Assembly (NCBI GenBank): GCA_964589635.1
Contig: CAZPRI010000003.1
Location: 1 to 49,337 of the forward strand
From: an uncultured Candidatus Saccharibacteria bacterium
GTDB taxonomy: Bacteria; Patescibacteriota; Minisyncoccia; Phycocordibacterales; JAACPR01
DNA: 49,337 nucleotides
Direction: 5' to 3'
The notes under the pieces are model-generated. The model had not been told where the DNA came from. It made no database searches and saw only the letters and a program-made list of their open reading frames with translations. This document shows, piece after piece, positions 23,296 to 36,434 of this stretch (within the stretch, counting starts at the first letter, position 1; each line of letters opens with the position of its first letter). A program made the translations under genes and the position numbers.

Positions 23296-23366
23296 TGCCT
23301 GATCGTCTAATGGTAGGACTACGGTTTCTGGTACCGTCAATTGGGGTTCGAGTCCCTATCAGGCAG
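23296..23366 (+). tRNA. tRNA-Gln (CUG)
   Basis: Manual cloverleaf: acceptor TGCCTGA/TCAGGCA with U1-A72, a 3-bp D stem, anticodon arm ACGGT-TTCTGGT-ACCGT, and T arm TGGGG-TTCGAGT-CCCTA. CCA is not encoded. Confidence 0.9.
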
Positions 23367-23369
23367 CAT

Positions 23370-23417
23370 AAAGTAGTCAGGTCCGTAAGCGATTAAGCTT
23401 TCGGACCTTTCTACTTT
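23370..23417 (+). other. Hairpin directly after tRNA-Gln
   Basis: AAAGTAGTCAGGTCCG pairs with CGGACCTTTCTACTTT, giving 14 bp with a 2-nt internal mismatch. Confidence 0.6.
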
Positions 23418-23428
23418 AACTGATTAAG

Positions 23429-23555
23429 AGGACGAGAAAACCGGAGGCTCAGGGCCCCTGTATCCGTAACCTGTGGAAGATCTGGGATAGCCGAGTCGAG
23501 GTCGCGAAAATTTTGTTTGGCAAAATTATTTGTGACCGAGTCCCTATCAGGCAGC
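23429..23555 (+). other. tRNA-linked conserved non-coding element, copy A, ending in a 19-nt copy of the tRNA-Gln 3' end
   Basis: 23429-23537 is about 90 percent identical to the reverse complement of 33831-33938. 23537-23555 is identical to 23349-23367. It contains a bulged hairpin at 23500-23537. Confidence 0.8.
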
Positions 23556-23616
23556 CACGTAAAAAACATAACAAAAAAGCAGGTATACTAACCTGCTTTT
23601 TTGTTATGTTCACGTG
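23556..23616. terminator. Very long perfect hairpin, terminator-like and bidirectional
   Basis: AACATAACAAAAAAGCAGGT-ATACTA-ACCTGCTTTTTTGTTATGTT is a 20-bp stem, extended by CACGT/ACGTG. Confidence 0.7.
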
Positions 23617-23764: not shown

Positions 23765-24022
23765 ATGTTTTATGTTTATCTTTTAGATCATATACAAGAC
23801 AAAACTTGGTATATAGGATACACCACAAATCTGGAAAGAAGACTTAGCGAACATCAAAATGGTGGTGGTTCGAGAACAACAAGCCTTAAAAAAGGAAACT
23901 ATAAACTCATATACTACGAAGCTTATTTGAATAAGCAAGATGCAACAAGCAGAGAGAAATATCTCAAAAGTGGCTCAGGAAGAAAATATATTAAAAAACA
24001 ACTAAGGAATTATTTATCCTGA
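23765..24022 (+). CDS. GIY-YIG nuclease superfamily protein (UPF0213-like, 85 aa)
   Basis: FYVYLL......WYIGYTTNLERRLSEHQNG is the GIY-YIG signature. Confidence 0.8.
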   Translation: MFYVYLLDHIQDKTWYIGYTTNLERRLSEHQNGGGSRTTSLKKGNYKLIYYEAYLNKQDATSREKYLKSGSGRKYIKKQLRNYLS

Positions 24023-24071: not shown

Positions 24072-24314
24072 ATGAATAAACAAAAAGGCCTTTCAACTTT
24101 ATGGAGAATTATTATTTTATTAGTTATTGGTGTTGGTGATTATTATTTTACTAATAAAAATACTGAAAGTATTCCCATAAATGAAAATAATAATCCTCTT
24201 GAAGACACAAACAACACCACTAAGACATCTCTACAAAATCTACAGAATGAAAATAATTATAAATTAGTTCCAAAAGAGTCACAGAAAATAATAGAAAGTT
24301 ATGATGACGATTGA
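24072..24314 (+). CDS. Small membrane-anchored hypothetical protein
   Basis: The 80-aa ORF has one TM helix and an Asn-rich tail. Confidence 0.4.
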   Translation: MNKQKGLSTLWRIIILLVIGVGDYYFTNKNTESIPINENNNPLEDTNNTTKTSLQNLQNENNYKLVPKESQKIIESYDDD

Positions 24315-28750: not shown

Positions 28751-29635
28751 TTAATTTTCTTTTTCTTTCATCTTAATAATAAATTCGTCTATGTCTCCAT
28801 CGAATACTTTGTCTATGTTTCTTATCTCAAAATTTGTCCTATGGTCTTTCACCATCTTGTATGGATCCAAGACATAAGACCTTATTTGACTACCCCATTC
28901 TGGAGAAACATTTTTCGTAATGGATAAATCCCTCACCTGTTCTTTTTCTTGCTCCTTAAGTAAATTATACAATTTTGCGCGGATTATTTCCATCGCCTTC
29001 TCCTTGTTCTGTAATTGACTCCTTTCGTTGGAAACAAAAGCTGATATTCCTGTAGGAGTATGTACTACTCGAACAGCTGTTTCTCTTTTGTTTACATTTT
29101 GGCCACCTGGCCCACTTGCCTTAGTGAACTGGATATCTAAATCATCTTCTGGGATATTAAAATCTACTGATGTTGAATCTATAACAGGAAGGACTTCAAC
29201 CATTGCAAATGAGGTTTGTCGCTTACCTGCAGAATTGAAAGGAGATTTTCTCACCAATCTATGTACTCCCGCCTCATACTTTAGATTTCCAAAAACTTTT
29301 TTCCCTGAAACCTCTAAAACAATATTCTTATATCCGCCATGGTCAGACTTGTTTTCATCCAAAAAATCGTATTTCCAATTTTTCAAATCAAAAAACTTCA
29401 TATACATTTCCAAAAGTATTCGTACAAAATCTTCCGCATCATCCCCTCCTACACCAGAAAAAATGGTCATGATTGCACTTCCGTTATCATATTTTGAACC
29501 ACCTTCTAATTGTATTTTTAAATCAGACATTTCCTTTATCATTTTCTGAGCTTTATCACTATCATTCCAGAAATCAGGAAGATTCATCAATACCTCAATT
29601 TCATTTATTCGTTCCTGTATCTCATTTTTATGCAT
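28751..29635 (-). CDS. prfB: Peptide chain release factor 2, short form, single uninterrupted ORF
   Basis: The SPF tripeptide (RKSPFNS) and the GGQ motif (SGPGGQNVNK) are present. At 294 aa it is shorter than about 365 aa in E. coli. Confidence 0.9.
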   Translation of the reverse strand: MHKNEIQERINEIEVLMNLPDFWNDSDKAQKMIKEMSDLKIQLEGGSKYDNGSAIMTIFSGVGGDDAEDFVRILLEMYMKFFDLKNWKYDFLDENKSDHGGYKNIVLEVSGKKVFGNLKYEAGVHRLVRKSPFNSAGKRQTSFAMVEVLPVIDSTSVDFNIPEDDLDIQFTKASGPGGQNVNKRETAVRVVHTPTGISAFVSNERSQLQNKEKAMEIIRAKLYNLLKEQEKEQVRDLSITKNVSPEWGSQIRSYVLDPYKMVKDHRTNFEIRNIDKVFDGDIDEFIIKMKEKEN

Positions 29636-33680: not shown

Positions 33681-33817
33681 AACATTTCGAAGGACAGGCA
33701 GGTTCCTAAAACCGTATCAAAAAACCTTGTAATTAGGGTCTTTTTCATCTGCGCGCCGTGTCCTTCCGAAGCTTTGCTTGTCCTGCGAAGCTTTAGCGTA
33801 TTAGGAGCGAAGGAGGA

Positions 33818-33938
33818 ATCGAAGGGACTCGGTCACAAATATTTTCTACGAAAATTTCGCGACCCCGACTCGACCATCCCAGATCCTCCACAAGTTACGG
33901 ATACAGGGGCCCTGGGCCTCCGTCTTTCTCGTCCCTGT
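33818..33938 (-). other. tRNA-linked conserved non-coding element, copy B, ending in a 14-nt copy of the tRNA-Asp T-arm and acceptor start
   Basis: The reverse complement of 33831-33938 is about 90 percent identical to 23429-23537. 33818-33831 is identical to 33997-34010 within tRNA-Asp. It contains a bulged hairpin at 33831-33864. Confidence 0.8.
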
Positions 33939-33946
33939 TCGCTGTT

Positions 33947-33988
33947 AAAAATAAAGACCTAAGTATGAAATACTTAGGTCTTTATTTT
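33947..33988 (-). terminator. Strong terminator directly after tRNA-Asp
   Basis: AAAATAAAGACCTAAGTA-TGAAA-TACTTAGGTCTTTATTTT forms a perfect stem of about 18 bp flanked by A and T runs. Confidence 0.85.
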
Positions 33989-33992
33989 AATG

Positions 33993-34066
33993 CGCGATCG
34001 AAGGGACTCGAACCCTCAACCTCCCGCGTGACAGGCGGGTGCTCTAACCAGTTGAGCTACGACCGC
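33993..34066 (-). tRNA. tRNA-Asp (GUC)
   Basis: Manual cloverleaf: acceptor GCGGTCG/CGATCGC, D arm GCTC-AACTGGTTA-GAGC, anticodon arm CCCGC-CTGTCAC-GCGGG, and T arm GAGGG-TTCGAGT-CCCTT. Confidence 0.9.
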
Positions 34067-36107: not shown

Positions 36108-36180
36108 TTCTGCGAAAGAATATCACATATTATATAAGAAGTCAACCCTACACATCATTAATACTTCTCCTTACTTTTTG

Positions 36181-36254
36181 TCCCGAGGGACGGAATTGAA
36201 CCGTCGACCTTAGCTTTATGAGTGCTACGCTCTAACCAACTGAGCTACCCCGGG
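36181..36254 (-). tRNA. tRNA with CAU anticodon (elongator Met or Ile2)
   Basis: Manual cloverleaf: acceptor CCCGGGG/CCTCGGG, D arm GCTC-AGTTGGTTA-GAGC, anticodon loop CTCATAA, and T arm GACGG-TTCAATT-CCGTC. Confidence 0.85.
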
Positions 36255-36322
36255 ATTTAACCCTGTAAATATAATACATTTTGTCCAAAATTTAAAGCTT
36301 TTTGTTTTAGTTTAGATGATTT

Positions 36323-36357
36323 AAAAAAGAGGCGCACCGAAGGTGCGCCTCTTTTTT
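36323..36357 (-). terminator. Rho-independent terminator (GAAG loop)
   Basis: AAAAAAGAGGCGCACC-GAAG-GTGCGCCTCTTTTTT. Confidence 0.85.
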
Positions 36358-36360
36358 ATT

Positions 36361-36434
36361 TGGTAGCGGGGCCCAGAATCGAACTGGGACCTTCAGGTTA
36401 TGAGCCTGACGAGGTGCCTTTCCTCCACCCCGCT
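36361..36434 (-). tRNA. tRNA-Met (CAU), initiator-like, CCA encoded
   Basis: AGCGGGGTGGAG..CTCGTCAGGCTCATAACCTGAAGGTC..CCAGTTCGATTCTGGGCCCCGCTACCA closely parallels E. coli tRNA-fMet. Confidence 0.85.

Follow-up and report, generated by a model that had tools for sequence, protein, structure and literature searches.

A tRNA-linked structured mini-element behind tRNA-Asp in a Patescibacteria genome, apparently a member of an undescribed family

Behind the tRNA-Asp gene of a 49,337-nt stretch of Patescibacteria DNA (contig CAZPRI010000003.1; hereafter the window, in whose coordinates all positions are given) lies a GC-rich block that ends in a short copy of the 3' part of the same tRNA. Why is a piece of the tRNA repeated there, and what is the block that separates it from the gene? 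An earlier note, made from the letters of the window, had described this arrangement together with a similar one behind tRNA-Gln and favored either a recombination role at the DNA level or an independently transcribed RNA; both classes of explanation remain live. This genome contains the feature twice. We assign a probability of about one half to the reading that it is a small, protein-less, structured and selfish insertion element of tRNA T-loops, which would be served by an enzyme acting in trans. Apparently it belongs to a family of structured, tRNA-linked mini-elements that is widespread in bacteria of the candidate phyla radiation (CPR) and seems to be undescribed and unannotated.

The Asp locus is read on the minus strand from 34066 downward, where tRNA-Asp(GUC) is followed by a palindromic hairpin, the GC-rich block, a 14-mer and then unrelated sequence (Table 1). 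The tRNA, the terminator hairpin, the conserved block and the 14-nt copy, which the earlier note had reported, were all confirmed at their positions. The 14-mer CGAGTCCCTTCGAT (33831-33818) equals tRNA-Asp 34010-33997, so that the copied part starts at C56 of the T-loop (34010) and runs into the 3' strand of the acceptor stem, inside which the copy (S) ends sharply; beyond 14 nt it reads TCCTCC where tRNA-Asp reads CGCGCA. When a 17-mer was searched with up to three mismatches, only tRNA-Asp and its S copy matched (0.00 expected). The gene has a promoter-like TTGATT-16-TATATT at 34123-34096. The hairpin between the tRNA and the block (t1) has 28-nt arms of 86% complementarity with an 18-bp perfect core, an A-tract before it and a T-tract after it, and is terminator-like as proposed. 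Beyond what had been noticed before, the 5' end of each block (A') is a degenerate inverted copy of the T-stem and acceptor of the same tRNA. This arm is able to pair with S, by CGAA/UUCG and GGGAC/GUCCC at Asp in a constrained fold, and by CUGAU/AUCAG and GGAC/GUCC at Gln. Between the arms of the Asp copy, the helix P2' encloses a window-specific P2 domain (GGCC...GGUC), which holds a 21-nt core identical in both copies; GG follows, and then the long hairpin P3, whose closing pair takes C33831, the first base of S. Just downstream of S, the 9-nt direct repeat AAAGCTTCG occurs twice on the minus strand (33794-33786 and 33775-33767; window 33767-33794). In the minimum free energy (MFE) fold, GGAGGA pairs with the UCCUCC that follows the Asp copy; this pairing was treated as chance because it is not conserved at Gln.

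The tRNA-Gln locus has the same architecture, as the earlier note had stated, with a hairpin and the same block before a 19-nt copy of the cognate tRNA. The Gln and Asp blocks are 85% identical over 116 nt by blastn (E=7e-33) and 82% identical over 125 aligned columns in a global alignment. They form inverted-repeat arms of 102 nt (23415-23516 and 33848-33949, 83%) and 23 nt (23523-23545 and 33823-33845, 96%). The 21-nt core CAGGGCCCCTGTATCCGTAAC, which both copies share unchanged, is present at just two sites in the window, where none is expected by chance, and the tRNA-tail copies are unique to their own loci (0.00-0.02 expected). G+C is 51-54% in the blocks and 34% in the window. The P2 stems of the two copies differ by a compensatory change between U-A and C-G (GGCU/AGCC versus GGCC/GGUC). 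The insert measures 174-188 nt, and the element about 190 bp with the duplicated tRNA tail. Similarity between the sequences downstream of S, CACGTGGCGCAGCC and CACGGCGCGCAG, was not significant, the local alignment score being 20 against 17±2.2 for shuffles.

The block encodes no conserved protein, and no ORF of the insert is under selection. Its antisense frame is open in both copies; since the differences between the copies are mostly non-synonymous, this frame is non-coding, and a profile built from it and compared with 5.8 billion proteins returned only the window's own open reading frame (ORF). Enzymes were sought in 30 ORFs of the window (a few were left out) and in the precomputed annotations of contigs that match other parts of the window; among the scanned window ORFs there was no family match to an integrase/recombinase, transposase, TnpB or reverse transcriptase.

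Table 1. Positions of the two elements, their host genes and the adjoining cassette in the window
Feature	Position	Strand	Evidence or remarks
tRNA-Asp(GUC), host gene	33992-34066	minus	ARAGORN; Rfam RF00005, 70.2 bits
t1 (Asp), terminator-like palindromic hairpin between tRNA and element	33947-33988	minus	sequence, inverted-repeat search
A' arm (Asp), GCGAACAGGGACGAG	33928-33942	minus	degenerate, inverted; copies T-loop, 3' strand of T-stem and first acceptor bases of tRNA-Asp
Core part 1 (Asp)	33865-33924	minus	P2' GAC (33924-33922) with GUC (33869-33867) around GGA/GA internal loop; covariation in relatives
Core part 2 (Asp), P3 long hairpin GGUCGCGAAAUUUUC-GUA-GAAAAUAUUUGUGACC	33831-33864	minus	RNAalifold; covariance model R1, 59.2 bits, E=1.8e-11
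S (Asp), 14-nt direct tRNA-Asp copy from C56, CGAGUCCCUUCGAU	33818-33831	minus	equals tRNA 34010-33997
tRNA-Gln(CUG), host gene of sister copy	23296-23367	plus	ARAGORN, Rfam
t1 (Gln), long imperfect hairpin AAAGTAG..AGGTCCG..CGGACCT..CTACTTT	23370-23417	plus	sequence; self-match 81% (2-51 vs 23418-23369)
A' (Gln), CTGATTAAGAGGACGAG	23420-23436	plus	degenerate inverted copy of tRNA-Gln T-stem/acceptor
Core (Gln)	23440-23537	plus	P2' + GGA/GA loop + P2 domain, 23440-23499; P3 hairpin, 23500-23537; covariance model 59.9 bits, E=1.2e-11
S (Gln), 19-nt direct copy, C56 to gene 3' end	23537-23555	plus	equals 23349-23367
GIY-YIG cassette, separate element abutting Gln copy	23556-~24900 (right limit approximate)	plus	leader, hairpin, gene, small ORFs

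The arrangement is not peculiar to the window. We compared 80 Paceibacteria/Minisyncoccia loci around the NAD kinase gene (1.15 Mb; L-numbers denote loci or contigs of this set) and scored a tail copy when at least 11 nt of the last 24 nt of an isolated tRNA recurred, in direct or inverted form, within 350 nt. Among 144 such tRNAs, which come from 60 related loci, a direct copy was found downstream of 33 and an inverted copy downstream of 39, with one or both at 49 (34%); upstream, neither form was found at any of the 144. The elements are ~100-230 bases long and follow a common plan. A palindromic, terminator-like t1 starts directly from the tRNA end. Two segments in reverse complement come next, "a" for the acceptor 3' strand with the discriminator and "t" for the T-stem 3' strand with the T-loop (e.g. 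GGAGGGATTCGAAC), often with a conserved 9-bp hairpin H1 (GCAAGCAAA-CUGC-UUUGCUUGC) between them. A structured core of 60-150 nt, the direct tail copy S and usually a second terminator complete the unit. Both window copies are without H1 and their inverted arms are degenerate, for which reason they look like somewhat eroded members of the family.

Lys, Arg, Ala, Asp, Pro, Gly, Val, His, Asn and Ser tRNAs are among the hosts, and the arms always match the local tRNA. The view that the tail is specific to the host tRNA thus holds across the relatives, and since it does, the loci cannot have arisen by simple copy-paste of one of them. C56 is the exact start of the direct copy in at least 13 independent cases with different tRNAs, and in 15 the copy begins at position 60. 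The 3' end of the copy is variable; counted from the tRNA end, it lies between -12 and +17, in some cases within the gene trailer, and the duplicated length ranges from ~10 to 36 nt across the family. The inverted arm is not a duplicate of the 5' half: where the tRNA has G·U pairs, the arm has the base complementary to the 3' strand, and its T-loop part is the loop in reverse complement; the T-stem of a tRNA-Arg (L076) gave the same sign. A' is complementary to positions 53-66/74 and follows even unusual T-loops (AATCGGA against TCCGATT in the tRNA, L063 and L097). It is often kept where S has decayed, as at a tRNA-Gly (L098) and a tRNA-Val (L101). At least four unrelated core types have these arms in common. 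A distant repeat of the tail was found at no tRNA in 1.25 Mb of relatives, that is, the elements are never large islands.

The core is structured in the sense of the tRNA. In the window's core type, which reads ...NNC-GGA-[P2]-GA-GNN-GG-GGUCGCGA...UUGUGAC|C56, the predicted fold is a three-way junction of the P2' helix with its GGA/GA loop, P2 and P3. For P3, RNAalifold on an alignment of 11 domains (A4) gave 15 pairs, 10 of which show compensatory double changes, and one G·U pair is invariant in all 11 sequences. Since this pair would be C·A on the other strand, the folding strand has the polarity of the tRNA. P2', three pairs around the GGA/GA loop, covaries as GAC/GUC, GUC/GAC, GGC/GCC, GCC/GGC and AGC/GCU, and matches to its motif were complementary in 27 of 52 cases downstream of tRNAs versus 3 of 38 upstream. 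Whole elements fold far better than shuffled sequences (z=-4.5 and -3.2), and the arms close a multi-helix junction in these folds; the family fold of the Asp copy lies within 2.6 kcal/mol of the MFE.

A covariance model (R1) was built from the 11-sequence P3 alignment and searched in 1.25 Mb. It gave 22 matches at E<=1, including five elements outside the seed alignment, and 19 of them sit 70-410 nt downstream of a tRNA on the same strand; the exceptions are one match at a contig edge and two weak ones (E=0.0017 and 0.84). The earlier note had tied its claim to the existence of further copies, and relatives of the 3' domain of the block do occur in other genomes, behind tRNAs apart from these few matches. 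Core types B and C are defined by a position 20-250 nt downstream of a same-strand tRNA, an inverted and then a direct tail, the helix NNC-GGA...GA-GNN, and a P3 of the form GGUCG...GUGAC abutting the direct copy at C56. All these features are found in the Asp copy. The Gln copy has them all as well, with P2' weakened in the window allele. At this point a single-nucleotide polymorphism (SNP) was found in the population (23441 C>A): the window has C, 8 of the 9 other contigs covering the site have A, and the A allele restores the A-U pair of the Gln P2' and matches the Asp copy. The topology of the core resembles a three-way-junction ribozyme. We considered hammerhead, hepatitis delta virus (HDV)-like, group I and group II domain-V readings and rejected them, the consensus nucleotides being absent and Rfam silent.

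Searches of Rfam 15 at the gathering threshold returned only the four tRNAs of the window. At E<=10, the Asp locus gave only chance-level matches below 30 bits; seven related loci gave tRNAs only, and type A and type C elements gave nothing relevant at E<=10. The families that remained unmatched in this way include hammerhead, HDV-like, twister, pistol, hatchet and hairpin ribozymes, group I/II introns, transfer-messenger RNA and the HEARO/omega-RNA types. In the full-text literature on CPR/Patescibacteria and tRNA-linked or integrative elements, no description of such elements was found. A comparison with phage and plasmid records by blastn gave no match. Scanning for 19- and 15-nt core words gave none in genome contigs and five chance matches in viral contigs, and in metagenome contigs only the Asp locus of the same organism. 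The word-scan negatives are weak, because the metagenome scan missed at least nine Joint Genome Institute (JGI) contigs that carry the 19-mer and were retrieved later by protein look-up.

Occupancy of the tRNAs is patchy. In L007, whose NAD kinase is 73% identical, NAD kinase and tRNA-Gln are present without the element. This contig is syntenic with the window from 17245 to the last base of tRNA-Gln and then continues with a small ORF homologous to that at window 24926, from which it follows that the window has ~1.5 kb extra after tRNA-Gln. Of seven tRNA-Gln(CUG) loci, only that of the window carries an element. At tRNA-Gly(UCC), whose tail is identical throughout, two loci are empty (L072, L073), three have a single element with different core types (L041, L096, L098) and two have two elements in tandem (L058, L063). 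Likewise, tRNA-Arg(UCG) is followed by type A in L065 and by type B in L100. Many copies have a decayed or lost arm. From the sequences, patchy occupancy, differing cores, arrays and decay together would be the behavior of selfish DNA.

Several side observations concern the same loci. The window also contains two tandem tRNA-Met(CAU) genes (36180-36434, minus strand) that have no element, so that two of its four tRNAs are occupied. Tandem arrays of two or three elements with different core types behind one tRNA were seen at L063 6695-7020, L058 9802-10170, L098 1-400 (minus strand) and L054 7204-7560; at the tRNA-Pro of L054, there are three tail copies, one of 30 nt, and a 35-36-nt repeat that includes 17 nt of trailer. 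The near-identical contigs L007 (7540-7700) and L008 (1820-1850) differ by the presence or absence of a whole tRNA-Gln gene bounded by TGATATT repeats; the difference may stem from a deletion, from an assembly variant or from mobility of the tRNA.

What stands behind the Gln copy bears on the order of events. The cassette that abuts it has a leader starting with CACGTAAAA, a 20-bp hairpin (23565-23610), CACGTGGCGCAGCC, a GIY-YIG gene (23765-24022) for an 85-aa URI-domain protein, and small ORFs; it is not found in L007. In front of the genes for close homologues of this protein (74-88% identical) stands a conserved leader of ~200 nt. It abuts a tRNA 3' end exactly and consists of ...AGC|C(G/A)CGTAAA, a long hairpin, CCACGYGGCRCAGCC and repeated TTTACGYGG. 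Besides the window, such cassettes were found at L136 1-552, L138 9740-10264, L140 9762-10270 and L141 740-1212. In front of the leader, the whole tRNA is present in L136 (tRNA-Asn) and in L140 (tRNA-Gln(UUG)); L138 has an orphan 25-nt tail there, and L141 a degenerate remnant. The window has this tRNA-end|leader junction behind the Gln S copy (23555|23556). Because the junction follows complete tRNAs in L136 and L140, S and the sequence after it represent the older tRNA-end|GIY-cassette junction, and the 188-nt unit of new tail, t1, A' and core lies between U55 and C56. We had considered the GCCA after Gln S as a copy of the CCA of a mature tRNA, which would be a signature of reverse transcription; its CA is, however, the start of the conserved GIY leader. 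As the copy often runs into the trailer in relatives, it would have been taken from DNA or a precursor rather than from mature tRNA.

These observations suggest the following course of events. The unit, which in tRNA orientation consists of a tail from C56, t1, A', the GC-rich core and S from C56, would enter a tRNA gene at the T-loop, at U55|C56 in the subfamily of the window and at 59|60 in others. The gene would keep a complete 3' end and a terminator, and the displaced tail would be left as S; the host would be unharmed because its gene retains both. The active form may be RNA or single-stranded DNA (ssDNA), folded and with the polarity of the tRNA. A' covers the insertion point (53-66/74), which makes it attractive to suppose that the target is recognized by pairing with the tRNA T-arm or by duplex mimicry of it, as in attC or the attP of CTX phage. 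The enzyme in trans might be one of the small GIY-YIG nucleases on tRNA-tail cassettes, a host tyrosine recombinase or a reverse transcriptase.

Several points weigh against this reading. Many S copies, including that of Asp at 14 nt, stop sharply inside the acceptor strand; since a displaced native tail would need a later deletion, such ends fit arms copied at insertion, or guide-like segments. In L063, two S copies have a common indel that is absent from the tRNA, whereas A' matches the tRNA, and this pattern leaves the pairing partner of A' unsettled. No enzyme is tied to the elements beyond proximity, and the strong structural conservation would suit an RNA useful to the host equally. Among 20 population contigs of the same organism, the elements are in place throughout and there is no mobility event; no excision, circle or new insertion was seen. 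The organism occurs in the JGI metagenomes 3300007986-3300008093 and 33000250xx and in the ENA sets ERZ17986938/44/47 and ERZ272933xx. No other organism was found to have the exact subfamily of the window with its P2 domain, and scans of viral contigs for the H1 hairpin and a type-C motif gave nothing convincing.

A bolder version of the insertion reading, which we regard as doubtful, is that the elements are a new class of mobile element that homes to the tRNA T-loop by means of its own folded strand, that is, by target-templated, nucleic-acid-guided insertion without an element-encoded protein. The antisense arm would read the T-arm across U55|C56, the core with its GGA/GA loop and invariant P3 base would recruit a small trans enzyme, either a GIY-YIG nuclease or a reverse transcriptase, and insertion or copying would generate the inverted and direct copies of the target at each new site. 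As a sub-variant, the core might be a new self-cleaving or self-ligating ribozyme acting at the P3|P1 boundary.

The alternatives differ in what they can explain. To a structured small RNA of the host, or a cis part of the tRNA transcription unit, aimed at the cognate tRNA, we give a lesser share of probability, still large enough to be weighed seriously. A' would then pair, in the tRNA or in its precursor, with the T-arm and acceptor 3' strand, S would be an internal anti-guide that closes a helix P1, and the GGA/GA loop and the invariant P3 base would bind a protein to form a ribonucleoprotein in tRNA maturation, quality control, modification or sequestration; as a variant, the unit might be excised from read-through transcripts as an optional T-loop "intron". 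A precedent exists in archaea, where guides that act in cis lie within pre-tRNA introns. The covariation and the invariant G·U on the tRNA-sense strand, the strong folds, the GC-rich sequence within an AT-rich genome, the fixed orientation and distance from the tRNA, and an A' that tracks unusual T-loops and often outlasts S would all be expected of such an RNA. It is less compatible with an occupancy that is patchy even at identical tRNAs and reaches only two of the four tRNAs of the window, with at least four unrelated core types sharing the arms, and with tandem arrays and many half-decayed copies. Moreover, the element lies behind a terminator-like hairpin, a promoter-like site of its own was not found, and a function needed by the tRNA would not be missing in close relatives such as L007.

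The remaining alternatives leave far more unexplained. An orphan guide RNA of the IS200/IS605-OMEGA type (TnpB/IscB omega-RNA), in which the block is a right-end scaffold and S a locus-specific guide, agrees with a scaffold of ~100 nt that has a precise end and is followed by 14-19 nt matching nearby DNA beside a fixed GTT motif. Yet no tnpB, iscB or tnpA was found among the scanned ORFs of the window or beside family members, no omega-RNA/HEARO family of Rfam matched, the left side consists of variable terminators instead of a conserved left-end hairpin, the upstream tRNA is complete unlike after a simple IS605-type insertion, and the inverted arm is left unexplained; we consider this origin very improbable. 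Slightly less room still is left for an attL-attR scar of a prophage or genomic island that integrated in the T-loop and lost its interior. A direct repeat from the tRNA T-loop to the 3' end is reportedly the classic signature of tRNA-targeting integrases, and such repeats exist at both loci (14 nt at Asp, 19 nt at Gln). However, no integrase was found in the window or beside ~50 elements, no bounding repeat lies at a distance from any tRNA of the relatives, independent deletions would not have produced the same covarying 100-nt core, and an inverted tRNA copy is foreign to attL/attR. The earlier note had proposed that the copy pair could invert the 10.3-kb ftsEX-prfB segment between them (23.5-33.8 kb), and the ~116-nt inverted repeats with 85% identity and identical runs of 21 and 18 nt do bracket it. 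This proposal is not supported: the 20 contigs, independently assembled from many samples, 10 of which cross the Gln junction and 10 the Asp junction, are all collinear with the window, contain no inversion isomer and differ within the elements only by SNP 23441 C>A. An odd number of inversions within the block would also swap the tails, and each tail is still cognate to its own tRNA. The inverted orientation follows from two convergent tRNA genes that each have a downstream element, and the same elements occur singly in other genomes. That the pair mediates or regularly causes inversion is thus hardly credible. Finally, a chance similarity or a decayed tRNA-Asp pseudogene, either of which would by the earlier note refute its claim, has practically no probability. 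Only the shortness of the match speaks for it; 0.00 matches are expected, the same block stands behind a different tRNA with the tail of that tRNA, and 49 of 144 tRNAs have tail copies downstream against none upstream. No tRNA model of Rfam matches in 33818-33945, and the 5' arm cannot be a real 5' strand: opposite the U of the G4·U69 pair it has A, not G, as a reverse complement of the 3' strand would.

On a conservative classification, for which we see about even odds, the element is a tRNA-targeting mobile element, small and enzyme-less. Like tRNA-targeting islands (P4-type, tyrosine-integrase and tycheposon-like arrays), these elements would insert in the 3' part; the gene is intact, a direct repeat runs from the T-loop to the 3' end and sometimes extends into the trailer, and elements accumulate in tandem behind one tRNA. 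Unlike islands, they are 100-230 nt long, without integrase, gene or cargo found, and have an inverted tail copy, a covarying core and no distant att repeats; the direct repeat of the tRNA 3' part is present, and a recombinase gene and kb-scale cargo are not. Integron attC sites and the forked-hairpin attP of CTX phage share with them an imperfect palindrome (A'...S) around a variable structured loop, strand information in non-Watson-Crick (G·U) pairs, unit order, arrays and a palindrome that mimics a duplex target. The attC consensus R''(RYYYAAC)/R'(GTTRRRY) is not present, however: the arms end in GAAC and begin with GTTC/C56, where position 4 is C and not a purine. In addition, no integrase was found and there is no link to IntI or Xer, the arms copy the local tRNA, and the only "cargo" is a terminator. 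In common with IS200/IS605 omega-RNA, a scaffold with a sharp end is directly followed by 14-19 nt identical to a target; ...GUGAC|C56... and a target preceded by G53-U54-U55 were found, and overlap with tnpB/iscB and end hairpins were not. The elements further differ from omega-RNA in that no nuclease ORF, conserved left end or Rfam match was found, the target is duplicated and not split, and there is an antisense arm. Miniature inverted-repeat transposable elements do not fit, as the inverted arms here copy the local tRNA and differ at every tRNA, and the duplicated length ranges over ~10-36 nt. Neither does a group I intron: Rfam gave no intron match, the last base before S is C, G or others without a constant terminal G, and U55 would face A and not G.

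Two further comparisons concern tRNA genes as targets. In archaea of the order Thermoproteales, non-canonical tRNA introns occur in the T-loop, and bacteria are not known to have the archaeal splicing endonuclease. As far as the citing article describes them, mobile non-canonical tRNA introns of these archaea (Fujishima et al. 2010, as cited in PMC10714607) resemble the elements as small non-coding T-loop inserts in many tRNAs, with spread between tRNAs and pairing of insert and exon. Here, in contrast, the host is bacterial, the upstream gene is complete and has a terminator so that splicing is not required, and a bulge-helix-bulge is not evident. Free-standing GIY-YIG homing-endonuclease genes, e.g. 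SegB of phage T4, are located beside tRNA genes. This likeness belongs to the neighboring cassette, which starts at the tRNA 3' end and sits at different tRNAs as well as non-tRNA sites; the ~190-nt element has no gene, and its link to the cassette is a lead only.

If the family is as it appears, about one third of the tRNA genes in a major lineage of ultra-small uncultured bacteria would carry an unannotated structured element. It would explain partial tRNA copies, GC-rich "intergenic" blocks and long palindromes behind CPR tRNAs, and the covariance model finds such elements. Inverted plus direct copies of the target point to a mode of target choice or copying unlike those of integrases, DDE transposases and IS605, which could be a compact and programmable insertion system guided by RNA or ssDNA. 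An antisense arm across the T-loop beside each affected tRNA could also influence tRNA maturation. Together with two types of GIY-YIG cassette, the elements would make tRNA genes hotspots of these reduced genomes, in which selfish DNA survives by carrying spare tRNA parts.

GIY-YIG cassettes with spare tRNA parts are common in these genomes and are candidate helpers. The cassette type of the window was found behind tRNA-Gln(CUG), tRNA-Gln(UUG), tRNA-Asn and an orphan tail, and at a non-tRNA site. In a small sample, 5 of 8 small GIY-YIG genes lay within 400 nt of a tRNA. The loop motif TGACGAC was tried as a link between the elements and the GIY leader and dropped, its enrichment being mild (9 of 98 occurrences in 3.8% of positions). 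Genes of a second small GIY-YIG subfamily (32-45% identical) lie 0-150 nt upstream of a complete co-oriented tRNA, at L046 5600-6400, L053 10600-11330, L074 15540-16330, L078 6440-6980 and L059 1355-1950. In L046, L053 and L078, 5' pieces of tRNA-Ala cut off within the anticodon loop (...CATTCG|TCCCGATTT) stand before them, and L074 has similar 5' tRNA pieces; such pieces mirror the duplications of the 3' tail. Within an 80-aa ORF that lies downstream of the window's GIY-YIG gene, the population contig L019 is without 51 nt (24195-24245), an in-frame difference that gives a 58-aa product.

The window itself is ordinary chromosomal DNA of a Patescibacteria bacterium of the Minisyncoccia/Paceibacteria type. 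Named homologues of its NAD kinase come from metagenome-assembled genomes of Minisyncoccia/Paceibacteria, and housekeeping genes lie between and around the copies (ftsE, ftsX, prfB, a PIF1-type helicase, TspO, glycosidases, RNase J and transketolase). For release factor 2, the homologue (28751-29635) is encoded by a single ORF of 294 aa that starts with the ATG at 29635; an upstream frameshift segment is not evident, and its N-terminus is short compared with the Pfam PCRF model.

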